NCBI GenBank assembly: GCA_035637675.1
Contig: DASPWU010000072.1
Coordinates: forward strand, 20,074 to 84,073
Direction: 5' to 3'
Length of the DNA stretch: 64,000 bases
Source: Candidatus Limnocylindria bacterium
GTDB lineage: Bacteria > Chloroflexota > Limnocylindria > Limnocylindrales > CSP1-4
The notes beneath the pieces were generated by a model that saw nothing but the letters and a program-made list of their open reading frames with translations, was not told the origin of the DNA and did not search any database. The position numbers and the translations under genes are program-made. Shown piece after piece: positions 16,460-30,638 of the stretch. Every line of letters begins with the position of its first letter. The first letter of the stretch is position 1.

Positions 16460-18190
16460 TCAGGCCGGGACCTGGTTCGCTCCGCATCGACGGCAGAAGC
16501 GCGCCGTGGCGGACAAGGGCAGCCCGCAGTTCACACAGGACTGGACTCCCGATTCCGGCCGGCTCAGCACGTCGCGGCTGGACGCCGCCCAGATCGCGTC
16601 GACGGCGCTGACCCGACCGCCGCGTTGTTCGCCGGCGGGCCAGCTGGGGGCGGCGGACGGCTGGCTGGCGGGCCAGGCCGGGGTCGACGGCCACTCGGGT
16701 TCGGTAGCCGGGGGGGAAGCCACCGGGAGCGCCGCCTGCGGGAGGGCGGGCGGCTGAACGGCTGCGGCCGGGATTGCCGGCGGCGGGACGGGCGCTGGCG
16801 GTGCGCTCGGCGCCACCGGCGCGGGCCACCGTGCCTGTACCGATGGCTGGAGGGCAGGCCCGGGTGACGTCGGGACGATCACCGGCTCGGCTGGATGTCC
16901 GTTCGGTTGGCCAGCGGGCGCCGGCGGTGTCTCGACATGCCACGTCGGGACCTCGATCCGGTCGACCTGCGGCCTGGCGGGCTCCGCCGCGACGGGCGGC
17001 TGAGCGGGCTCGGACGGCTGGGCGCGCTCGGCTGCCACGGGCGGCGGCTGAACGGGCTCAGACGGCTCGACGGGTTTGGATTCCGCGGCCGCTGCCGGCC
17101 GGGACCCGGTCGTCCGATTGAAGCGCGTGAGGAATTCGGCAGTCTGGGCCAGCGCCGCCGCGGTACGCTCGTCGATCGCGTCGAGCTCGCTCGGCGGGGT
17201 GCCGGCGACCGCGGTGTCATCTGCCGGCGGCTGCGCGCTCGCGGGGACCGCAGGTTGCTCACGCGCTGCCAGGGCGGCCTCGGCTCCGGCATGGGCAGCG
17301 TCTTCCTCGAAGAGGCTGACTTCCAGGGCGATGTCCCGGGCCGGTTTCGCCGGCTTGGGCGGGATCGGCGCCCTCGGGGCAGGCTTGGCCGCAACGGTCC
17401 CCGCCGGCGGCCCGGCGACGGCAGCCGGCGCGACGGCGGTTGGCGGCTCCTGGACGACGGTGGGCGCCGGCGGCTTGACAACCTCGGCGGCCGGCGACTC
17501 GGCGGCCGGCGGCACGGGCGCGGCCTCCACCGGCGGGGGCTCGGCCGGCGCGGCCGCCACCGGCAGGTCGGGCCCGCCCTTCACCGGCGGTGACTGGACG
17601 ACGTCGCCGACCTGCTCGTCCGGTCGGGTGGCGATCGCGAAGAGGGACTGCAGGCGCGATACCGCGTCGGTTTCCTCATCCTTGACCGCCTCCTCGGCGG
17701 GAGGCGTCCGACTCAGGTCCGTGGTCGGCCAGGCCGCCTCTGCCGAAGAGCCCTGGAGGAGAGTCTCCAGATCGATCTCGTGGCCGTTGCCGGCGGCCGC
17801 CGCACCGATCGAGGCGATTCGGCCGAACGGGTCGGGAGCCCTGAACGGCGCCTCCAGGACCTCGTGGCCCAGATGAGGCGCGCAGCTCAGGCAGCGGCTC
17901 TCCACCTCGTTCCAGCAATTGGCACAGGTGTACTGCCGGCACGACATGCAGAAGTTGAACGTCTTATGGAACGCATCGAGCTGCTGCCCGGATGCCTGGC
18001 GATCCTCGTCGCTGCGAGCGTCTGCAAGGGCCTCGTCGAGCGACGCCTCGTCGCTCAGGACGTAGTTCTTCAGACCCCGGGAGAGGACCTTGAGCTTGCC
18101 GAACCGCCGCCCGGCCCGGGGCGATTCCGTCTCGAAGGTGTAGCGCGTGCCGCAGCGTTCGCAGAATGACTCAGTCAGGATCTCGGACAT
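16460..18190 (-). CDS. Zinc-ribbon / Pro-Ala-rich protein (N-terminal 8-Cys domain, long PA-rich linker, C-terminal zinc ribbon)
   Basis: ATG at 18190 preceded by GGGGA. N-terminus CERCG...CMSC...CANC...CLSC (four CxxC pairs). About 350 aa low-complexity Pro/Ala/Val region. C-terminal CVNCG...CRRCG. Confidence 0.6.
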   Translation of the reverse strand: MSEILTESFCERCGTRYTFETESPRAGRRFGKLKVLSRGLKNYVLSDEASLDEALADARSDEDRQASGQQLDAFHKTFNFCMSCRQYTCANCWNEVESRCLSCAPHLGHEVLEAPFRAPDPFGRIASIGAAAAGNGHEIDLETLLQGSSAEAAWPTTDLSRTPPAEEAVKDEETDAVSRLQSLFAIATRPDEQVGDVVQSPPVKGGPDLPVAAAPAEPPPVEAAPVPPAAESPAAEVVKPPAPTVVQEPPTAVAPAAVAGPPAGTVAAKPAPRAPIPPKPAKPARDIALEVSLFEEDAAHAGAEAALAAREQPAVPASAQPPADDTAVAGTPPSELDAIDERTAAALAQTAEFLTRFNRTTGSRPAAAAESKPVEPSEPVQPPPVAAERAQPSEPAQPPVAAEPARPQVDRIEVPTWHVETPPAPAGQPNGHPAEPVIVPTSPGPALQPSVQARWPAPVAPSAPPAPVPPPAIPAAAVQPPALPQAALPVASPPATEPEWPSTPAWPASQPSAAPSWPAGEQRGGRVSAVDAIWAASSRDVLSRPESGVQSCVNCGLPLSATARFCRRCGANQVPA

Positions 18191-18359
18191 CGTGTCCCCG
18201 GGGCGCAACTCATCAAGCTCGGGCGGCGACGCCAGCCGAACGGATGCGAGAGTATACCGCAGGGTCATTGCCTCCCCTCCGCCGCTCGTACCCCGTGGGC
18301 CTACCGATGGTCCCGCCGATCGGGCGGGCCGGACGCCTCTGCTAGACTCCGGGCGCCTC

Positions 18360-19145
18360 ATGCGACCCCTCGCCGCTCTCGAGCGGATCATCGAACGGCT
18401 CGTCGAACGGTCATCGGCCCGACTCTTCCGGACGCGAATCCAGCCGCTTCAGGTCCAGCGGCGGGTCGAGCGGGAAATGGAGACGCATCGCCGCAGCGTG
18501 GGCGATCGGACCCTGGTGCCCAACCGCTTCACGGTACGCCTGAATCCGGCCGATCTGGCCGAGCTCGAGGCGGTTGCCCAGAGCCTGGTCGCGGAGCTTG
18601 CCGACGCCGCGCTCACGTTCGCCCGGGCGCACCGATACGCCGTTGCGGATCGACCGCAGGTGGCGCTCGTCGCAAACCGCGCTGTCGCCGTGGGGGAGAT
18701 CGACGTCGATGCCCGATTCGAGGATCCCGGACGACCCATGGACGGTGCCGTCGCGCGGGCCGGCCAGCCCGATGGCTCACCGATGGGCGATGACGCCCCG
18801 GGCCTCGAGCGGACCATGGTGTTCTCGATCCCGCAGCCGGAGGCCCCGCTCGCCGTGCTGCGCCAGATCCTGCCCGATGGGTCGGATCGCCAGATTCTCC
18901 TCGACGGACGGCCGCTGACGATTGGCCGGGCGACCGACAACGACGTGGTCCTCCGGGACTCGCGGGTGTCTCGCCATCATGCTCGCCTCCAGAGTCGACG
19001 GGGCACGCTGGTGCTGACCGACCTGGGAAGCAGCAACGGCTCGCGGGTCAACGGGATCACCGTGCAGGAGGTGGTATTGGGGCCCGGCGACCGGATCCAG
19101 CTGGGTGACTCGGTCCTGGTCGTCGACAGCGTGTCCAACGCCTGA
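18360..19145 (+). CDS. fhaA: FhaA-like protein (DUF3662 N-terminal domain plus C-terminal FHA domain)
   Basis: N-terminal MRPLAALERIIERLVE...FRTRIQP. C-terminal FHA: GRATDNDVVLRDSRVSRHHARL...LTDLGSSNGSRVNG. Confidence 0.75.
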   Translation: MRPLAALERIIERLVERSSARLFRTRIQPLQVQRRVEREMETHRRSVGDRTLVPNRFTVRLNPADLAELEAVAQSLVAELADAALTFARAHRYAVADRPQVALVANRAVAVGEIDVDARFEDPGRPMDGAVARAGQPDGSPMGDDAPGLERTMVFSIPQPEAPLAVLRQILPDGSDRQILLDGRPLTIGRATDNDVVLRDSRVSRHHARLQSRRGTLVLTDLGSSNGSRVNGITVQEVVLGPGDRIQLGDSVLVVDSVSNA

Positions 19146-19149
19146 ACAG

Positions 19150-19587
19150 ATGGATGGCGCCCTTCTGACGCTGTGGATCATGCGCCTCGCCTTCCTGGCC
19201 CTGATCTACCTGTTCCTGATCGGTGTGGTCCGCGTGCTCATCCGCGACCTGCGGGCCGCGTCGCGCGAGCCGGCCACCGAGCTCGGGCGGCTGATCGTGC
19301 TCGCGTCGCCCTCCGGCGAGCCGGCGGTCGGCTCGGTCTTCGCGCTGGATGCCGTCACGACGATCGGCCGCGACGTGAACAACGCCGTCGTCATCGAGGA
19401 TCCGTTCGCGTCTTCCGAGCACTGTGCCCTGACGTTCCGTGGCCGCTCGTGGTACGTGGAGGACCTGGCCAGCACGAACGGCACGTTCCTCAACGGCAAC
19501 CAGGTCGATGGAACGGCCCCGATGAGCTACGGCGACGAGATCCAGGTCGGTGAGGTCCGGCTGCGCCTGGAGCGAGGTCGCCGGTGA
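19150..19587 (+). CDS. fhaB: FhaB/FipA-like protein (N-terminal TM helix plus FHA domain)
   Basis: TM LWIMRLAFLALIYLFLIGVV. FHA: IGRDVNNAVVIEDPFASSEHCAL...VEDLASTNGTFLNG. ATG 5 nt after the fhaA stop. Confidence 0.75.
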   Translation: MDGALLTLWIMRLAFLALIYLFLIGVVRVLIRDLRAASREPATELGRLIVLASPSGEPAVGSVFALDAVTTIGRDVNNAVVIEDPFASSEHCALTFRGRSWYVEDLASTNGTFLNGNQVDGTAPMSYGDEIQVGEVRLRLERGRR

Positions 19588-21041
19588 GCGGCAGCCGGCA
19601 GATGGCCCTCCCGGCGTTGCGCTGGAGGGCGATCCGGCCACGCGCGCGCTGGCGGGAGAGCGCCCTGCTTGGACTGCTGGCCGTGACGCTCATCGTGGGC
19701 AGCGCCTCGCTGGGTGCAACCGAGCGAGTGCTGGCCGGGGGTCAGCCCGGATTTGCCGCGGCCGACCCGCGTGCGCTGAGCCTCTACCTGGGCATGCTCT
19801 TCGCCGTTCACCTGGCCCAGGTGCTCGCCGGGCGCCGCACCGACCAGGTGCTCCTGCCGGCTGTGGGGATGCTCGGCGGCATCGGGCTTCTCCTCATGGA
19901 GCGGCTGCCGCCCGGTCAGGTCACCCAGCAGATCTTCGGCAGGACGCTCGTCCTCGGCCAGCTCCAGCTGGCCTGGCTCGTGCTGGCGCTCGCGATCGTC
20001 GGCGGGCTGGCGGTGGCGGTCCGATCCGACCGATGGCTGCGCCTCTACAAGTACACCTGGGCCGCCGCGGGAATCGCGCTGCTCCTGCTCACCCTCGTCC
20101 TGGGCATCGACGTGAACGGGGCTCGCCTGTCGCTCCGGGTCGGGCCCCTGACCGGACAGCCGTCCGAGCTCCTGAAGGTGATGCTGGTCATCTTCCTGGC
20201 CGGCTACCTGTCCGAGAACCGGCCGCTGCTGGTCGAGCAGGACACGAGGCTCGGGCCGATCCGCCTGCCGCCGCTGCCCTACCTGGCCCCGATGGTTGCC
20301 ATGTGGGCGACGGCGCTGGGAATCGTCGTGATCGAGCGCGACCTGGGCGCCGCGCTGCTGTTCTTCGTGGTCTTCCTGCTGCTCCTGTACATCGCCACCG
20401 GCCGAACCAGCGCGATCGTGCTCGGCCTCATCCTGTTCGCGGTCGGCTCCGTGCTCGCCTATCAGCTCGTCGAGCACGTGCGAACCAGGGTCGATATCTG
20501 GGTCGATCCGTTTGCGGACCCCACCGGGGCCGGATACCAGGTGGTCCAGGCGCTCCACGCCTTCGCCCGGGGCGGAATCGTCGGCACCGGGTTGGGCGGC
20601 GGGCTGCCGCTCATCGACGGGCAGCCTCCGATTCCCGCGCTGCACACCGACTTCCCGTTCGCGGCCCTGGGCGAGGAGCTGGGCCTGGCCGGGATCCTGG
20701 CGATCCTGGGCCTGTACCTCGTGGTGATCGAGCGGGGCCTCCGCATCGCGGCCTCCGCGGCGGATGACTTCCGGGCGATCCTGGCGGCCGGGCTGAGTCT
20801 CGTCGTCGGCGTCCAGGCGTTCATCATCGCGGCCGGCAATCTCAAGCTCATCCCCTTGACCGGCATCACCCTGCCCTTCATCAGCTATGGCGGCTCGTCG
20901 CTGCTCACGAATGCCGTCGTGGTCGGCCTGCTGCTGGCGATCTCGGACAAGGGCGTGGAGCCGCCGCCTGCACCGGGACGCCTGCCGCGGCTGTCCCGGC
21001 GCCGCCTGGTGGGATTTCTCCAGCGCGGACGCGCGCAATGA
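19584..21041 (+). CDS. rodA: FtsW/RodA/SpoVE family peptidoglycan glycosyltransferase
   Basis: Ten-TM SEDS protein with conserved FILIxEPDLG-like and PxxGxTLPFISYGGSS motifs. Overlaps the fhaB stop. Confidence 0.85.
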   Translation: MSGSRQMALPALRWRAIRPRARWRESALLGLLAVTLIVGSASLGATERVLAGGQPGFAAADPRALSLYLGMLFAVHLAQVLAGRRTDQVLLPAVGMLGGIGLLLMERLPPGQVTQQIFGRTLVLGQLQLAWLVLALAIVGGLAVAVRSDRWLRLYKYTWAAAGIALLLLTLVLGIDVNGARLSLRVGPLTGQPSELLKVMLVIFLAGYLSENRPLLVEQDTRLGPIRLPPLPYLAPMVAMWATALGIVVIERDLGAALLFFVVFLLLLYIATGRTSAIVLGLILFAVGSVLAYQLVEHVRTRVDIWVDPFADPTGAGYQVVQALHAFARGGIVGTGLGGGLPLIDGQPPIPALHTDFPFAALGEELGLAGILAILGLYLVVIERGLRIAASAADDFRAILAAGLSLVVGVQAFIIAAGNLKLIPLTGITLPFISYGGSSLLTNAVVVGLLLAISDKGVEPPPAPGRLPRLSRRRLVGFLQRGRAQ

Positions 21042-22567
21042 CCGCCGGCCGGCCACCCCAGGCTGTCCGTCGCGTCACCGGCCGCACGGTTGGCCGCAAC
21101 ATCAGTCGCGTCGGCGTCACCCTGGCCCTCGCGTTCGCGGCTCTGGCGGGCGGCGCCGGCTACTGGCAGGTCGTCCGGTCCACGGACCTGTCGACCTCCC
21201 CCGACGACGCGGCGGTCATCTCGGCCGTTCGTCACGTTCCCCGGGGCCGCATCCTGGACCGCCGTGGCACGGTCCTCGCCTCGAACAAGCTGGACGCGAA
21301 CCGGGAGCCATACCGCACGTACCGCTACCCGGTGATGAGTCCGGTGATCGGCTACGCCTCGCGGCAATTCGGCAAGGCCGGCCTGGAGCTCGCGTACGAC
21401 GCGCAGCTGGCCGGCCTCCGTCGTGCCGATCCGGTGGCCGACATGCTCACGAAGTTCCAGACCAAACGCTATGACCCGCAGGACATCACCCTGTCCATTT
21501 CCCTCCAGCTCCAGGCCGCCGCGGCCCGCGGGCTCGGTCGCGACCAGGGCGCCGTCGTCATGCTCGATCCGCGGACCGGCGAGGTCCTGGCGCTCGCCTC
21601 CACGCCCACGTTCAACGCGTCCACCCTGACCAACCCGAAGCGGGACGAGGCAGCGGCGTCCTGGAAGGCGCTCAACGCCGACAAGGCCGACCCGCTCCTG
21701 CCGCGGGCCACCCTGGGCAAGTACGTCCCGGGCTCGGTCATGAAGATCGTCACGGCGATTGCCGCCTTCCGGTCCGGTTCGATCACGAAGGACACCACGT
21801 TCAAGCAGCAGCCCGGGGCGGAGACGACCGGCCTGCTCGTCTCCGGTTACCGCGTCCGCGACGGTCATCACCTGTTCACGGGAGACAGGGCCCTCGATTT
21901 CATCGAGGCGACCGAGGTGTCGTGCAACATCTACTTCGCCCTCGCCGGCCTTCGGACCGGCGGCGCCGAGATGGATGCGGCAGCCCGCAAGCTGGGCTTC
22001 TACGCACCGATCCCGTTCGACCTGCCCACCGCGTCGTCCCAGCTGACCAACGGCGGCGGGCCGCTGCCGGGCGGCTTCCTCGATCGGGTCGAGCTGGCCA
22101 ACGCGGCCTACGGTCAGGGTGAGACGGTCGTGACGCCGCTCCAGATGGCCCTGGTCGCGGCCACGGTCGCCAACGACGGCGTCCTCATGAAGCCCCATCT
22201 GGTGCGCTCCTTCAAGGGCGCCAACGGCACGCAGACGGTGGCACCCGAGACCTGGACCACGGTCCTCCCGTTCAACGATGCCGCGGTCATCAAGGAGGCA
22301 ATGCAGCGCGCCGTGGAGGGTCAGTACGGCCGTCTGTTCACGTCCGGCGCCAGGGTGCCCGGCATCCCGACCGCGGGCAAGACCGGCACGGCCCAGCTGG
22401 GCGGCTCCGGCGAGCCCAACAGCTGGTTCATCGGCTTCGCTCCGGTCGACCAGCCGCGCGTGGCCATCGCCGTCGTGGTGGCGCACGGCGGCGGCGGCGG
22501 GGCACGCGCAGCGCCGCTGGCCGGCAACCTGATGCAGCTCTTCTTCGACACCGAGGCGAATCGATGA
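21038..22567 (+). CDS. pbpA: Penicillin-binding protein (class B transpeptidase)
   Basis: SxxK (GSVMK), SxN (SCN) and KTGT motifs. N-terminal TM. Overlaps the rodA stop. Confidence 0.85.
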   Translation: MTAGRPPQAVRRVTGRTVGRNISRVGVTLALAFAALAGGAGYWQVVRSTDLSTSPDDAAVISAVRHVPRGRILDRRGTVLASNKLDANREPYRTYRYPVMSPVIGYASRQFGKAGLELAYDAQLAGLRRADPVADMLTKFQTKRYDPQDITLSISLQLQAAAARGLGRDQGAVVMLDPRTGEVLALASTPTFNASTLTNPKRDEAAASWKALNADKADPLLPRATLGKYVPGSVMKIVTAIAAFRSGSITKDTTFKQQPGAETTGLLVSGYRVRDGHHLFTGDRALDFIEATEVSCNIYFALAGLRTGGAEMDAAARKLGFYAPIPFDLPTASSQLTNGGGPLPGGFLDRVELANAAYGQGETVVTPLQMALVAATVANDGVLMKPHLVRSFKGANGTQTVAPETWTTVLPFNDAAVIKEAMQRAVEGQYGRLFTSGARVPGIPTAGKTGTAQLGGSGEPNSWFIGFAPVDQPRVAIAVVVAHGGGGGARAAPLAGNLMQLFFDTEANR

Positions 22568-22815
22568 CCGGCACCGACGGTGGTCCGGCCGAGGAGCCTG
22601 TCGGGGCACACGCTTCCGAGGCGGAGGCCAATCGCGAGCCCAGACCATGGATCGAGCGGATCGGCCTGGCCGGTATCGCGCTCCTCATGGCCGGGCTGTT
22701 CGGCACCGTCGGCGTGGCGGCCTGGTACGGGAACGAAGGATTCCTGGCCGCCATGGGTGCCATCGGCTGCCTCATGACCCTGTGGGTCGGGGCGCTGACG
22801 CTCGTCCGCGGCTGA
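22564..22815 (+). CDS. Small hypothetical membrane protein
   Basis: ATGA overlap with the pbpA stop. Two hydrophobic helices, [22 protein letters not shown] and [17 protein letters not shown]. Confidence 0.4.
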
Positions 22816-25758
22816 GCGCCACGCGCGGGCCCGGATCGAGCAACGCTGCCAGCGAGGCAGCGGATCCGTCGACCGCCTGGCCGGCCTTGCTCGTCTGCTC
22901 GAGCAGCTTCGCGACCAGGGCAGTCCAGCCCGTCTGATGGCTCGCTCCCAGGCCGGCCCCCGTGTCACCGTGGAAGTACTCGTAGAACAGGATCCGATCG
23001 CGGAACGCCGGATCGCGTGCGAACCGAGGGTCGGGGCCGAAGACCGGCCGTCGTCCCGCCGCATCGGGCAGGAACAGCGCCTCCAGCCGGAGCGACAGCT
23101 CGTGGGCCACATCCCCGAGGGTTGCCTGCCGACCGGACCCGGTCGGCAGCTCGACCGTGAACGCCTGGCCGTAGTAATGGTTGAACCGCTGGAGCGCCTC
23201 GATGATCAGGTAGTTGATGGGGAACCAGATCGGGCCGCGCCAGTTGGAGTTGCCGCCGAACAGCGGAAGGCGCGATTCGGCGGGTTCGTAATCCACGCGG
23301 TGCTCGGCACCGTCGATGGGCAGCACGAACGGGTGGTCGCGATGGAAGCGGCTCAGGGAGCGGATTCCGTGATCGGCAAGAAACTCGTCGGAGTCGAGCA
23401 TCCGGGCCAGCAGCGCCTGCAGCCGGTCGCCATGGACCAGCGCCAGCAGGCGGCGCTGGCCGACTCCCGGCTCTTCCCACGACGCCACGAGCCGGGCGAG
23501 CTCCGGCCGGTTGGCCAGGAACCAGCGCATCCGCCGCCGGAACTCGGGCAGCAGGTCCAGGGTCCCCGGGTCGAGCGTCTCGACCGCGAGCATCGGGATC
23601 AGTCCCACCAGGGATCGGACCTTCAGCGGGATGACCTCGTCCGTATCGAGATGGAGCACGTCGTAGAAGAACCCGTCTTCCTCGTCCCAGAGGGGGATCC
23701 GCTCACCGTCGGGCAGGCCCACGCCGTTCAGGGCTCCGGCGATGTACAGGAAGTGCTCGAAGAATTTCGTCGCGATGTCCTCGTAGACGCGGTCCTCCCG
23801 CGCCAGCTCGAGCGCGATCGCCAGCATGTTCAGGCTGTACATCCCCATCCAGGCGGTGCCGTCCGCCTGCCCGAGGTGGCCCGCGACGGGCAGCGGCGCG
23901 CTCCGGTCGAACACGCCGATGTTGTCCAGGCCCAGGAAGCCGCCCTGGAAGACGTTGTTGCCGTCGGCGTCCTTGCGGTTCACCCACCAGGTGAAATTGA
24001 GCATGAGCTTGAGGAAGACACGCTCCAGGAACGAGCGGTCCGGCCGCCCGTGCAGGCGCTCGTCGATCTGGTAGACGCGCCGGGTCGCCCAGGCGTGGAC
24101 CGGCGGATTGACCTCGCCGAAGGACCACTCGTAGGCCGGCAGCTGGCCGTTGGGGTGCATGTACCACTCCCGCGTGAGCAGGAGGAGCTGAGCCTTGGCC
24201 AGCTCGGGATCCACCTGGGCCAGGGGGATGCAGTGGAAGGCCAGGTCCCATGACGCAAACCAGGGGTATTCCCAGGTATCGGGCATGAGCAGGATGTCCG
24301 CGTTGTTCAGCTCCGCCAATCGTGGTTGCGGCCGCGGCGGCGCTCCGGCGGAGGAACCGGCTGATCGGGGTCGCCCTCCAGCCAGCGCCCCACGTCGTAC
24401 TGATACCACTGCTCCGACCACAGGAGACCGGCGAACGCCTGGCGCTGGACGAGGCGCTCGTCGGGCGTCGCCCGCGGGCCGGCGAGCGGGCGATAGAACG
24501 CGTCCGCTTCCGCCCTGCGGGTCGCCAGCAGGTCGTCCGCGTCGGCAAATGGCACCGTCTCGTCCGGCGGCGCGTGGGGCGCGTGATCCGCCGGGTGGTC
24601 GGCATCCGGGGTCTCGTCACAGGAGAACAGGCGCAGGCGAATCCGGCTCGTCTCTCCGGGCGCCAGCAACAGCTCGTAGCGCACCGCCACCTTGGATCCT
24701 TCGCCGGCCGGATTGACCGCGTCACGCCGTCCCTCGACGACCGCCGCATGGATCCCGTCCTTGACGAACGGGCCGGGGTTGGACACCCCGTACAGGCGTT
24801 CTGCGTTCGTTTCGTTCTCCGTGAACAGCAGCTCCGGAGCGCGACCGTCGACGGGTTCCGCCGCAAGGCGGTAGGTGCCCAGGCGCGGATGGGACGACTC
24901 GACGCGCCGACAGCCGCCGGCGGTGGCTCCCACGTCGCGCAGGCGGGGCCGGGTCTTGTGGCGCCCCCACGACCAGGTGTTGCAGAACCACAGCGTGGGC
25001 AGCACGTCGAGCCGGGCCGGTTCGGGGCCGCGGTTGGTGACCGTGATCCGGATGACGAGATCCTCCGGCTGGGCCTTGGCGTATTCGACCTCCACGTCGA
25101 AATAGCGGTCGTCATCGAGGACGCCGGTGTCCAGCAGCTCGTATTCGGGGTCCGAGCGGGTCCGGCCGGCGTTTCCGGCCACGAGATCGTCGTATGGAAA
25201 CGCGGCCTGCGGGTACTTGTAGAGCGCCCGCAGGTAGCTGTGGGTCGGCGTCGCATCAAGGAACCAGTAGAGCTCCTTGACGTCCTCGCCGTGGTTTCCC
25301 TGCTGGCCACTGAGGCCGAAGAGGCGCTCCTTGAGGATGGCGTCCCGGCCGTTCCACAGGGCGAGCGCGAAGCACAGGCGCTGCTGGTCGTCACTGATGC
25401 CGAGCAGGCCGTCCTCGCCCCAGCGATAGGCGCGCGACCGGGCGTGGTCGTGCGGCAAGTACGCCCAGGCGTTGCCATCCGCCGAGTAGTCCTCGCGAAC
25501 GGTGCCCCACTGGCGCTGGGACAGGTACGGACCCCAGCGACGCCAGCGCGTCGACGGGTCGGCGGCAGCGGCCAGGCGGGCGCGCTCGGCGTCCACTTGC
25601 CGAGCGGGAGATCGTCGACGGGGTCGGGCATCGGCTCGACCGCCGGGTCGAGCCGGGCGTGTCGCGCCAGCCACGCCCCGAGCGCTGCCGGCGGCCGATC
25701 GATCGACGCTCATCGAGTCATCGCCCCGGATCATGCGTCCCGGCCATCGCTGGAGCAT
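22772..25758 (-). pseudogene. Glycoside hydrolase family 63 (MGH/YgjK-like glucosidase) split by a frameshift near 24307-24421
   Basis: Upstream ORF 24307-25758 carries the GH63 N-domain ([21 protein letters not shown]...[11 protein letters not shown]...GRNHDWRS-stop). The downstream ORF 22772-24421 in another frame continues with [25 protein letters not shown] and the (alpha/alpha)6 domain. The two are contiguous in homologues. The N-terminal start is uncertain (25596-25758). Confidence 0.55.
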
Positions 25759-25926: not shown

Positions 25927-26959
25927 AATGACCAAGATCCAGGAGTCCGGCGAGAAGGTCATCGCCAACGTCGAGCGGGTGATCGTGGGCAAGCACCACG
26001 AGGTCCGCCTGGCCCTCGTCGCGTTGCTGTGTCGCGGTCACCTCCTCATCGAGGATGTGCCCGGCACGGGCAAGACGATGCTCGCCAAGGCGTTCGCCCG
26101 CAGCCTTGGCTGTACGTTCCGGCGCATCCAGTTCACGCCCGACCTGCTCCCCTCCGATGTGACCGGGCTCTCGATCTTCAACCAGAAGACGCAGGAGTTC
26201 GAGTTCCGCCCCGGGCCGATCATGGCCCAGGTCGTCCTGGCCGACGAGATCAACCGGGCCACGCCAAAGACCCAGTCGAGCCTGCTGGAGTGCATGGAGG
26301 AGCGCCAGGCCACGATCGACGGGACCACCTACAAGATGCCCGACCCGTTCCTCGTCATCGCCACCCAGAACCCGATCGAGTACGAGGGCACCTTCGCCCT
26401 GCCGGAGGCCCAGCTCGACCGGTTCATGCTCAGGATCCGGCTCGGCTACCCGCAGCCCATCGAGGAGATCGTCATCCTCGACGAGCAGAAGCGGGAGCAT
26501 CCGCTCGACGAGCTGGAAGAGGTCTGCGGTGTGGACGAGCTGCGCGAGCTGCAGGCTGCGGTCCGCGAGATCTACGTCGACTCGACCGTGAGCGACTACA
26601 TCGTCCGCCTGGTCAACGGCACGCGGAACCACCCGGACGTCTACCTGGGTGCGTCGCCTCGCGGCTCGCTCGCTCTGTACCGCGCCGGCCAGGCCATGGC
26701 CGCACTGCTCGGTCGCGATTACGTCATCCCGGACGACGTCAAGGTGCTGGCCGAGCCCGCCCTGGCCCACCGGCTCATCATCAAGACGAGCTCGACGATT
26801 CACGACGTCCAGCCCGGCCAGGTCATCCGTGAGCTGCTCGACACGACGGCCGTCGAGGGCGTCCATCCGCAGGGCCGCGAAGCGTCGCCCCGGCCGCTGC
26901 GACCGGCCGCCGTGGGAAGCGCCGAATCCGCCGGCATGGCCCGCGAAAGCAGCGTCTAG
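25927..26959 (+). CDS. MoxR family AAA+ ATPase
   Basis: Walker [10 protein letters not shown]. Walker [14 protein letters not shown] preceded by GAGGAG. Confidence 0.85.
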
Positions 26960-27000
26960 GCGCGGCAGGGACCGGCCCTCCTCGTCGTGCGATCCGTCCG

Positions 27001-28281
27001 ATGATCCGCCGCATCCAGGCGCTCGCGATCGCGACGACGCTCGTCCTGGCAGCCTTCTCGACCGGCCTGCCGTTCCTGTTCTACCTCCTGTATCTGGCCG
27101 TCCTCATCATCGGCGGCAGCTACATCGTGACCCGGCTGGGCCTGACCGATCTGGAGGCAGGCTACGCGGTCAACCAGCTCCACGGTCGGGTCGGAGACAC
27201 GCTCCGCGTGACGTACACCCTTCGCAATGCCAGCCGGACCCCAAAGCTCTGGCTCGAGGTCTACAACCCGACCAACCTGCCGGCGGGCCTGCCCGGCCGG
27301 GCCCTGTCACTCGGTCCCAACCGCGAGCGCTCCTGGATCATCAAGACGCCGCTCAACCGGCGCGGTCACTTCCGGATCGAGCCGCTCCAGATCCGAACCG
27401 GCGACCCGTTCGGGCTGTTCGAGGCGTCCGCGGCGGTCGGGCAGGGCCTGTCCCTGGTGGTCTACCCCCGCATCGAGCGACTGCCCCTCTGGCGATTGCC
27501 CGCCGCCAACATCGAGGGCAGCCACGCCGCCCCGGAACGGACGCTCCAGACGACCCCGCTGGCAACGACGGTTCGGCCCTACGCGCCGGGCGACAGCTTC
27601 AATCGAATCCACTGGAAATCGACCGCTCGGCACGGCGACATCCAGGTCAAGGAATTCGACCTTGAGCAGACCTCGGACGCGTGGATCTTTCTCGACCTCG
27701 ATCGACGCGTCCAGGCGGGCCGGGGTGATGACTCGACGGTGGAGATCGGGGTGATGGCAGCCGCCTCCATTGCCGACCGGGCTCTGCTCGAGAACCGGGC
27801 GGTGGGCCTCACCACGAGCGGCCATCGCATCGCGGTCGTGCCGGCCGACCGCGGCGGGCGCCAGCACCTCAAGATCATGCAGCTCCTGGCCGCGGTCGAG
27901 GGTGACGGCACCGGAATGCTGGCGGAGACCCTGGTCACCGGGCTGTCTCGGCTGCGCAGGGGCATGACCGCGGTCGTGATCACGCCGTCGCTCGAGCGCA
28001 ACTGGGTGCGCCCGCTCGCGTCACTTCGGTCGCGAGGGGTCGCCTGCGTGGTGGTCGTGATCGACGCCCAGTCGGCGAGAGTGGCCAGCGAGCCGGCCCG
28101 CCGGAGCCAGACGCCCTCGGGCACGGCCGCGGGAACGGCTCCCGGTTCGGCCGCCTGGCAGGCCGATGCCGACGCGCGGGCGCAGGCCGCCCGGGCCCTG
28201 CGTCACGCCCTGGCCGAGTACGAGCTGAGGGTGAACTGGGTGGAAGCCCGGCGGCCCCTCGCCGAGGCGCTGCTGGGATGA
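27001..28281 (+). CDS. DUF58 domain protein (MoxR partner, vWA-like)
   Basis: N-terminal TM pair. DUF58 core RPYAPGDSFNRIHWKSTARHGDIQVKEFD. Confidence 0.8.
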   Translation: MIRRIQALAIATTLVLAAFSTGLPFLFYLLYLAVLIIGGSYIVTRLGLTDLEAGYAVNQLHGRVGDTLRVTYTLRNASRTPKLWLEVYNPTNLPAGLPGRALSLGPNRERSWIIKTPLNRRGHFRIEPLQIRTGDPFGLFEASAAVGQGLSLVVYPRIERLPLWRLPAANIEGSHAAPERTLQTTPLATTVRPYAPGDSFNRIHWKSTARHGDIQVKEFDLEQTSDAWIFLDLDRRVQAGRGDDSTVEIGVMAAASIADRALLENRAVGLTTSGHRIAVVPADRGGRQHLKIMQLLAAVEGDGTGMLAETLVTGLSRLRRGMTAVVITPSLERNWVRPLASLRSRGVACVVVVIDAQSARVASEPARRSQTPSGTAAGTAPGSAAWQADADARAQAARALRHALAEYELRVNWVEARRPLAEALLG

Positions 28282-30638
28282 CCGCGACGACCTGGCGCAG
28301 CAACGCCGTCCCGGAGGGTCGCCGCCTGCTCTTCCCGACTCGACCGTCGGAGGGCTGGCTCACCCTGGGCCTGGTGATGCTGCTCGTCCTGCCCATCGCC
28401 TGGTCCATCCAGGATGCTCGATGGGTGCTCGGCGACCGGCGGCTGACCGAATTCCTGCCATATACGGTCCTGGGGGGCGCCGCGCTGGGGATCCTCGGCG
28501 CGAAGGTCGGCTGGGGCCGCTGGCGGACCCACCTCGTCGGCGCAGTCGCCGCGGCGCTGGTCGTGCCGATCCTGGTGGGCATGGTCCTCGAGCCGGGCGG
28601 TGGCGTCGCCGGCTGGTTCCTGGCGACGTCGGACGCGACGACGGAAGCGGTCCTGGATCTCACGATCCGCAACCGGACCGTGACCCAGCAGTACGCCCAC
28701 TTCCTGCTGGTGCTCGGCCTCATCTGCTGGGCGACCGGCCAGTTCGCGGGCTACGCGACGCTCGGCCACCGCCGGCCCCTGGGAGCTGTCTTCGTGACCG
28801 GGCTCGTCCTGCTGTCGAACATGTCGCTGACCCGTCTCGACCAGCTCCAGCTCCTCGTCGTCTTCAGCCTGGCCGCCCTGTTCCTCCTCGTCCGAATCCA
28901 TGCCGACGACGAGCGGTTGGGCTGGCTCCGGCGCCGGATCGGCGACCCGGCCACGGTGACCGATCTCTATCTCCGGGGTGGAACGGTCTTTGTGGTTGCC
29001 GCCGTGATCGGATCGCTGTTCTTGACGAGCGCGGCCGCGTCGGCGCCACTGGCCGGGGCGTTTCGGACCCTGGACCAGCGGCTCATCGACGTCGGCCAGT
29101 CGGTCCAGCGCTACCTGCCGTTCGGTGGGCCGGGCACGCGGCTATCCGGCGACAGCTTTGGGGCAACGGCGTCGATCACCGGACAGTGGGAAACGGACGA
29201 CACCCCCTCGTTGAAGATCCGCCTCCCGCCCGGAGACGCGCATCCGTATTACTGGCGGGCGTTCGTCTACGACCGATTCACGCTCAACGGCTGGACCCTC
29301 GGGGAGAACGTCCAGGAAGACCGGTCGTCGGGCCAGGCGATCCTCGCCGGAACCGGCGATCAGGTTCCGGATCCGACGGTCCGCCATGCGCTCAGCTACA
29401 CCGTCGAGTCGCTCGGCTATAACGGCTCCCCGATCTTCCTTCCCGACGCGCCGGGGACGGTCGAGATGAATACCCGGCTGACGGTCATCGGCAGCGAGCG
29501 CGCATTCGGCGGCCTCGAGGCCGGCGGGTCGTGGAAGACGTACCGGGCGACCTCGCTAGTGCCGACCGAAGGCGACGAGGCCTTCAGCGGCTCCCAGCTG
29601 CGGGCGGCCGGCCGCGAGTATCCGCCCGAGATCCTGGCCCGCTACACGAGCGTCCCGCCCGGTGCGATCGGTCCCGAGGCGCAGAAGCTCCTGGCCCGCA
29701 TCCGCCGGCTGGCCGGCAGCGACAACCCCTATGACCTCGCTCTTGCCGCCGCGACGCTGCTGCGAGGCGGCGAGTTCAACTACGACACAGACGTGCTGGA
29801 CCTCCTCTCGGGGCCCTGCGAGGGGATCAGTGCGGTCGAGTGCTTCGCGCGGTACAAGCGGGGCTACTGCCAGTATTACGCGAGCACCATGGCGATTCTG
29901 CTCCGGGAAGCCGGGGTCCCAACCCGACTCGCCCAGGGTTACCTGCCCGGCGACCGCGATCCCAAGACCAGCATCGAGACGATCCTGAGGAGCAACTCGC
30001 ACGCCTGGGTTGAGGTCTATTTCCCACGCTTCGGCTGGTATACGTTCGATCCGACGGGTGGCGGGCTGACCGTGTTCTCGCCGCTGCCGGCCGGCCGGCC
30101 GGTGCCGACGCCGTCGGCCGCGCCCCGCGCGAGCGGGGACATTGAAAACCCGCCAGGAGCGGAGGCGCGTCGTCCGCCGACGGGAGCAGGCGGAACGACG
30201 GACACGAATTCGTCCGGCCCGGGCAGCGTCCCGTTCATCGTGCTCACGATCCTGCTGGCCCTGGCGGTCGGGGCCCTGGCCTTCCTGGCGTACTGGCGGG
30301 GGCCGCGCCAGGCAGCGGCACCCGACACCGTGTGGTCCGGGGTGGCCCGGCTGGCGGGTCGGTTCGGCTGGGCCCCCAGGCCGACCCAGACGCCATTCGA
30401 GTACGCCCAGGCGCTCGGCGACGTGCTGCCGGTCGCCCGACCGGAGCTCCACGTGGTGGCCATTGCCAAGGTCGAGGCCGCCTACGGCCGGCGGGTCCTC
30501 GACGAGCGGCGGATCGCGGCTCTCCGGGAGTCGTATCGGCGGTTGCGGCTCCTTCTCCTCCGGCTCGCCTTCCGGCGGCGCGGCCGCCGACCGAGCGGGC
30601 GGTCGCGCGGATCCTGGCGGCCGAGGTTCCGTCGCTGA
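28278..30638 (+). CDS. Transglutaminase-domain membrane protein (TgpA-like, DUF3488 plus transglutaminase core)
   Basis: Multi-TM N-terminus. Cys-His-Asp transglutaminase core GYCQYYAS...[21 protein letters not shown]-terminal TM. Confidence 0.8.

Follow-up and report, generated by a model that had tools for sequence, protein, structure and literature searches.

The stretch of 64,000 nucleotides (nt) analysed here from contig DASPWU010000072.1 of a Candidatus Limnocylindria bacterium (assembly GCA_035637675.1), called the window below, was found to contain five consecutive genes on the + strand at positions 18360-22815. They are fhaA, fhaB, the SEDS gene rodA, pbpA and an open reading frame (ORF) for a protein of 83 amino acids (aa) with two transmembrane (TM) helices, and together they form a real, tightly packed cell-wall operon. 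The five-gene layout without a kinase is the norm for the class Limnocylindria, in more than 80 species-level genomes, and is not peculiar to one genome. Genes were called by third-position GC (GC3) and all supported ORFs of the window were scanned against Pfam. The operon was found to contain the following features.

18337-18349, + strand: extended -10-type element CTCTGCTAGACT (TGnTAnnnT), recognised by the position of the motif across related loci
18360-19145, + strand: fhaA, 261 aa; Pfam FhaA_N (1.9e-25) and FHA (2.7e-19)
19150-19587, + strand: fhaB (FipA-like), 145 aa; Pfam FHA (6.5e-19), N-terminal TM helix
19584-21041, + strand: SEDS glycosyltransferase, named rodA by synteny, 485 aa; Pfam FTSW_RODA_SPOVE (PF01098, 3.4e-73)
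21038-22567, + strand: pbpA, a class B penicillin-binding protein (PBP), 509 aa; Pfam Transpeptidase (3.5e-56) and PBP_dimer_2 (5.5e-08)
22564-22815, + strand: small two-TM membrane protein, fifth gene of the operon, 83 aa, without a family

The junction of fhaA and fhaB was read from the sequence as TGA-ACAG-ATG, followed by the presence of overlaps at the three remaining junctions, namely GTGA between fhaB and rodA (with a GTG start of rodA) and ATGA both between rodA and pbpA and between pbpA and the 83-aa ORF. The first-pass annotation had placed fhaA, fhaB, rodA and pbpA in this order, and the Pfam domains were found at the positions it gave for them. Its account of translational coupling through GTGA and ATGA was likewise upheld, and its 5-nt gap between the first two genes was corrected to 4 nt.

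For the comparison of loci, one genome per GTDB species was scanned with an FhaA alignment, which gave 228 relatives, and the window and 84 related loci were compared as a set of 85 loci (1.53 Mb). The best 80 of the 228 FhaA relatives were 52-73% identical and came nearly all from metagenome-assembled genomes (MAGs) of Chloroflexota or Candidatus Limnocylindrales, apart from a few bins whose labels are evidently wrong; the named closest homologues were likewise from MAGs labelled Chloroflexi/Chloroflexota or Candidatus Limnocylindrales. The dominant order was found to contain a BrkB-like gene and a divergent zinc-ribbon gene, followed by fhaA-fhaB-rodA-pbpA-small ORF and by MoxR-DUF58-transglutaminase genes. 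The five-gene order with its tight spacing recurs in 81-83 related loci and is not due to chance. The largest spacing was 7 nt between fhaA and fhaB (83 loci), 118 nt between fhaB and rodA (81 loci), 234 nt between rodA and pbpA (81 loci) and 315 nt between pbpA and the small ORF (74 loci), and therefore no phosphatase or kinase gene fits at any of the four junctions in any locus. The same order was seen in gene calls and precomputed Pfam hits on long contigs, and also in three members of the class that diverge further and have a longer linker in FhaA. A synteny comparison with Chloroflexi genomes had been proposed in the first-pass annotation, and the kinase-less layout was found to be shared by the more than 80 Limnocylindria genomes.

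In NCBI taxonomy Candidatus Limnocylindrales belongs to Chloroflexota, class Candidatus Limnocylindria, and the host thus falls outside Actinomycetota. This group (Ellin6529, RIF-CHLX) has been described in a preprint as a deep, monoderm, peptidoglycan-containing lineage beside Chloroflexota (bioRxiv 10.1101/2021.08.23.457424). The earlier description of the source as a deep-branching high-GC lineage was therefore apt, whereas the term actinobacterial holds for the homology of the genes only and not for the host. Limnocylindria-type loci were also present in five MAGs labelled Saccharimonadales, Patescibacteria, Anaerolineaceae or Thermomicrobiales (L032, L081, L016, L043 and L074), which probably reflects mis-binning or mislabelling.

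No Pkinase, PASTA, PP2C or SpoIIE domain was found in the Pfam scans of the GC3-supported ORFs of the whole window, and probes for PknB and PstP gave no phmmer match at E<=10 in any six-frame ORF of at least 50 aa in it. The probes were a PknB kinase domain and a PstP catalytic domain; Pfam reads them as Pkinase (7e-52) and PP2C_2 (5e-14), and as a positive control they detected the kinase (3.6e-38) and the PP2C (1.8e-36) of locus L090. Motif and probe searches of the 85 loci also found no kinase or PP2C in the 1.53 Mb, a scope of one homologous neighbourhood per genome that says little about the remaining genome. There was no PstP gene between fhaB and rodA, where the stop of the former overlaps the start of the latter, and the spacing of this pair in the related loci leaves no room for pstP. 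No PknA or PknB PASTA kinase gene was found 3′ of pbpA, where the 83-aa gene is followed by a convergent GH63 gene. The first-pass annotation had stated that a PP2C gene is missing between fhaB and rodA and that pstP, pknA and pknB are missing locally; the former statement agrees with the 81 loci, and the latter was extended from the flanks to the whole window. Adjacent copies of these three genes that might have been missed were found neither by Pfam nor by the six-frame phmmer search.

The FhaA protein was found to contain an FhaA_N domain (DUF3662) at about residues 1-122, a short linker and a C-terminal FHA domain at about residues 165-255, with Pfam bit scores of 90 (cut-off 25) and 69.8, respectively. 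In a phmmer search against PDB its FHA part matched the FHA domain of M. tuberculosis FhaA (3po8/2lc1, 1.7e-09); only FHA domains were matched and the N-terminal domain of M. tuberculosis FhaA was not, so that membership of the N-terminal domain is based on the Pfam profile. The residues G189, R190, S204, R205, H207, N226 and G227 were invariant among 23 homologues. FhaB, encoded directly after fhaA, is a membrane-anchored protein with a single FHA domain and a TM helix at residues 1-19, and its residues G73, R74, S88, H91, S108, N110 and G111 were kept in 82-83 of the 83 homologues. Both FHA domains retain the canonical GR, SxxH and NG loops that contact phosphothreonine (pThr).

An RTMVF motif was found at residues 151-155 of FhaA (18810-18824, + strand), about 35 residues N-terminal to the GR loop of the FHA domain. 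It was nearly invariant (of the 120 closest FhaA homologues, 116 have it), and its equivalent in the FhaA of the canonical cluster at locus L091 was HTMIY. The motif resembles the phospho-acceptor motif ETTSVF of GarA/OdhI, and its threonine, T152, might speculatively be a candidate site of phosphorylation and FHA docking. In mycobacteria FhaA and FhaB are pThr readers that act on cell-wall synthesis and belong to the seven-gene cluster (PMC11898655; PMC6554272); FhaA binds MviN and CwlM, which are phosphorylated PknB substrates, and FhaB/FipA has a role in division (PMC11898655).

The two fha genes were followed by a gene for a multi-pass membrane protein of the SEDS family (PF01098) and by a gene for a PbpA-type class B PBP with PBP_dimer_2 and Transpeptidase domains. 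PbpA was found to contain a single N-terminal TM helix and the intact transpeptidase motifs SxxK, SxN and KTG, as SVMK233, SCN295 and KTG448, respectively. Its top PDB matches were actinobacterial PbpA proteins, namely 4mnr (1.9e-47) and 3un7/3lo7 of M. tuberculosis (about 1e-42).

The 83-aa protein belongs to the operon. A homologue was found directly 3′ of pbpA in 75 of the 85 loci. The protein has two TM helices, and its C-terminal part of about 55 aa is highly conserved. The first-pass annotation had given the right order, with this gene and then a convergent GH63 gene after pbpA, and its treatment of the 83-aa gene as a mere flank was not sustained by this conservation. The protein was assigned to no Pfam or NCBIfam family, and its matches to DUF3040 were below threshold (E 0.035-0.29). 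CrgA, whose gene lies near the pknB cluster, is a small protein with two TM helices that partners mycobacterial PBPs; the 83-aa protein is likewise small, has two TM helices and is encoded beside a PBP gene, but no sequence relationship between the two was detected. An identity with CrgA was rejected, as the Pfam model CrgA (PF06781) gave no match at E<=10 to the five 83-aa homologues searched and, as a control, detected M. tuberculosis CrgA at 1.5e-27.

The element CTCTGCTAGACT occurs once in the window, and in 47 of 50 related loci it was found to end 10-12 nt before the ATG of fhaA. Metagenome contigs contained the same 16-mer directly 5′ of tRNA genes and also 5′ of many ATG codons, including starts that look leaderless. 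Since it occupies these positions it probably represents a promoter consensus that these high-GC bacteria use in general, and an operator of a cluster-specific regulon was ruled out because the 16-mer also stands in front of tRNA genes and of many others unrelated to the cluster. One contig with a kinase gene, L183, was recovered as well; it had no lineage assignment and was left out of account. Its position would imply a leaderless or near-leaderless operon mRNA starting at fhaA. A consensus scan of 18000-23200 for promoters and terminators was empty; such a scan needs a -35 box, which is missing here.

The genes on either side of the operon were as follows.

16460-18190, - strand: zinc-ribbon protein, a conserved divergent neighbour, 576 aa; Pfam Zn_Ribbon_1 (5e-05) at the C-terminus
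22775-25597, - strand: GH63/MGH1-like hydrolase, convergent, identified by Pfam
25928-30638, + strand: operon of MoxR AAA+, DUF58 and transglutaminase (TgpA-like) genes

The zinc-ribbon protein was found to contain a Cys-rich N-terminal zinc-ribbon region, followed by a Pro/Ala-rich linker of about 350 aa and the C-terminal zinc ribbon. Its gene stood head-to-head with fhaA in 80 of the 85 Limnocylindria-type loci and was not beside fhaA in L088-L092, and by synteny the protein is a possible partner of the module. The GH63 gene shares 44 nt with the 3′ end of the small ORF; it was present in only 12 of the 85 loci and is an occasional insertion, without which MoxR usually lies about 250 nt past the small ORF. 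A 1-nt indel at about 24315 separates the window from the ENA contig L001, which is otherwise 99.9% identical and in which the GH63/MGH1-like gene is one ORF of 940 aa. The gene is frameshifted in the window, either as a pseudogene or through an error of sequencing. The MoxR/DUF58/transglutaminase operon was found directly 3′ of the cluster in about 65-70 of the 85 loci, and its adjacency may be functional. The mycobacterial protein Rv1480 is presumably also a DUF58 protein. It is a vWFA-domain protein of the moxR1 operon and is part of the mycobacterial FhaA interactome (PMC11898655). The window was further found to contain sugar-utilisation genes and genes for ValRS, PGI, SerA and helicases.

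Proteins with FhaA_N (E<=1e-3) were collected as 1588 clusters at 50% identity, and at least four other contexts of fhaA-fhaB were found in other lineages. In the Chloroflexia-type loci L088, L089 and L092, as in the window, a gene for FhaA_N and FHA was followed by a gene for a TM helix and FHA, with no adjacent kinase or phosphatase gene, but these loci, unlike the window, contained no SEDS or PBP gene after the pair. Two of the three contained a VanW/PG_binding_4 gene just 3′ of fhaA-fhaB (L088, 11729-14275; L092, 11943-14222), whose product may be another peptidoglycan-related partner of the pair. In the third, from a Herpetosiphonaceae MAG, the pair was followed by a nuo operon, and one further contig contained Pkinase-fhaA-fhaB-PP2C without rodA-pbpA. 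In L091, a MAG of 73% GC (GCA_046128415.1), the Actinobacteria-like full form fhaA-fhaB-PP2C-SEDS-PbpA-PASTA kinase-ddl was present, and its FhaA (252 aa), FhaB, SEDS protein and PbpA, in the same order, showed 34%, 34%, 40% and 34% identity with their window counterparts. From these contexts it follows that fhaA-fhaB is the constant element and that its association with the synthase or with the enzymes is lineage-specific. In the Limnocylindria form the synthase is linked and the signalling enzymes are not.

The reading considered likely is that of a class-typical operon of five genes that would combine a peptidoglycan synthase with pThr adaptors, and on which kinase and phosphatase would act in trans. 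The gene identities, their coupling, the local absence of the enzymes, the class-wide conservation and the pThr residues are the observed parts of this model. The extended -10 promoter just 5′ of fhaA would drive transcription of the genes, which are coupled in translation. As a pair, the SEDS glycosyltransferase would polymerise peptidoglycan and the PbpA-type transpeptidase would cross-link it. The membrane-anchored FhaB and the soluble FhaA would be pThr-dependent adaptors that tie the synthase to Ser/Thr phosphorylation signalling. One or more kinases and a phosphatase, unlinked to the operon, would work in trans from other sites in the genome; because the pThr-binding residues are invariant, kinases encoded elsewhere in the genome, one of the two alternatives in the first-pass annotation, appear the likeliest source of the ligand. 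The predicted parts of the model are the contacts between the proteins, a dependence on phosphorylation, the kinases in trans and the action of the -10 element as a promoter. Several points weigh against this reading. The best NCBIfam model of FhaB was FhaB_Rv0019c at 97.5 bits, under its equivalog cut-off of 125 bits; the NCBIfam scores do not establish a role of the SEDS protein in elongation rather than in division; and the placing of kinase and phosphatase in trans is drawn from searches on the scale of loci.

It is possible, although doubtful, that FhaA, FhaB, the SEDS protein and the class B PBP represent an ancestral module that took up the PP2C and PASTA-kinase genes by later insertion, in the line toward Actinobacteria. 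Such an origin is suggested by the occurrence of fhaA-fhaB without kinase or phosphatase genes in several Chloroflexota-type lineages and by the deep branching of Limnocylindria next to Chloroflexota (bioRxiv 10.1101/2021.08.23.457424). However, the contexts fit equally well with loss or relocation from a full cluster like that of L091 or with independent assembly, and the linkage of pstP and pknB, reported as conserved in both Firmicutes and Actinobacteria (PMC6554272), suggests that this pair is itself old.

That the SEDS protein and the PBP are instead the divisome pair FtsW-FtsI, and not of the RodA-PbpA type, is unlikely. The NCBIfam model ftsW outscored rodA_shape for the SEDS protein (250 against 198 bits), and FtsW was its best PDB match (7.6e-41, against 1.9e-30 for RodA), but both NCBIfam scores were under cut-off. 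The PBP, moreover, contains the PbpA-specific PBP_dimer_2 and has actinobacterial PbpA as its closest solved relatives, no dcw genes (mraZ, mraW, mur, ftsQ/A/Z) were found nearby, and the synteny with fhaA-fhaB matches that of rodA-pbpA in the canonical cluster.

Two readings dispense with pThr signalling through a cognate PASTA kinase. The farther-reaching one, which is quite improbable, would have fhaA-fhaB permanently wired to the SEDS protein and the class B PBP with the two-TM protein as a new subunit, in genomes that contain no cognate PASTA kinase or PP2C anywhere, under regulation that is phospho-independent or due to a non-Hanks kinase; more weakly still, it would make the FHA-SEDS-class B PBP set ancestral, with kinase and phosphatase added later in Actinobacteria. 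The other, which has very little probability, is that the FHA proteins act free of phosphorylation in a lineage without these cognate enzymes, by phospho-independent binding to RodA-PbpA or to each other. The absence of any kinase or PP2C from the window and the 1.53 Mb of loci is consistent with it, as is a module that is self-contained and strictly conserved without these enzymes. Against it, the pThr residues of both FHA domains do not vary within the class, which would be difficult to account for if there were no pThr ligand. The sampled loci are a single homologous neighbourhood, which limits what their lack of enzymes can say, and Chloroflexota genomes usually carry several Hanks-type kinases.

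Removal of pstP, pknA and pknB from a canonical cluster, by a recent deletion in this genome or by an artefact of assembly, would account for the local absence alone. It is refuted by the recurrence of the identical layout, with genes that overlap or almost touch, in more than 80 species-level genomes, all independent, and in assemblies made independently of one another (ENA, JGI, NCBI and Logan).

To our knowledge, the seven cluster genes of Actinobacteria have always been discussed as one set, and the allegiance of FhaA and FhaB, whether to the kinases or to the RodA-PbpA synthase, is therefore ambiguous. Limnocylindria keep the fha genes with the synthase and other lineages keep them with kinase and phosphatase, which makes the two linkages separable. 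This points to a direct relationship of FhaA and FhaB with the SEDS-class B PBP pair that can be tested, and the 83-aa two-TM protein and the zinc-ribbon protein, both strictly syntenic, are nominated as candidate partners. The result is a refinement by comparative genomics without a new mechanism, solid as a finding and of modest interest. In the literature no description of the cluster was found outside Actinobacteria and Firmicutes.

Among known systems, the closest is the actinobacterial cluster fhaA-fhaB-pstP-rodA-pbpA-pknA-pknB (Rv0020c-Rv0014c in M. tuberculosis), in which the linkage of pstP, rodA, pbpA and a PASTA kinase is reported to be kept throughout Actinobacteria (PMC6554272; PMC11898655). 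In both, fhaA and fhaB come before the SEDS gene and the gene for the PbpA-type PBP, in the same order and direction. The two are also alike in the FhaA_N and FHA domains of the first protein, the TM helix and FHA domain of the second, the PbpA-specific dimerisation domain and the tight coupling of the genes. The actinobacterial cluster contains a PP2C gene after fhaB and kinase genes after pbpA, whereas the Limnocylindria operon contains neither and has an extra conserved two-TM gene after pbpA. The FhaA linker is about 40 aa in the window, whereas it is about 300 aa in M. tuberculosis (PMC11898655). The Limnocylindria locus is a lineage-wide variant of the actinobacterial cluster and not a member of it; it is homologous to the core of that cluster and is set apart by the lack of PstP, the lack of a PASTA kinase and the phylum of its host.

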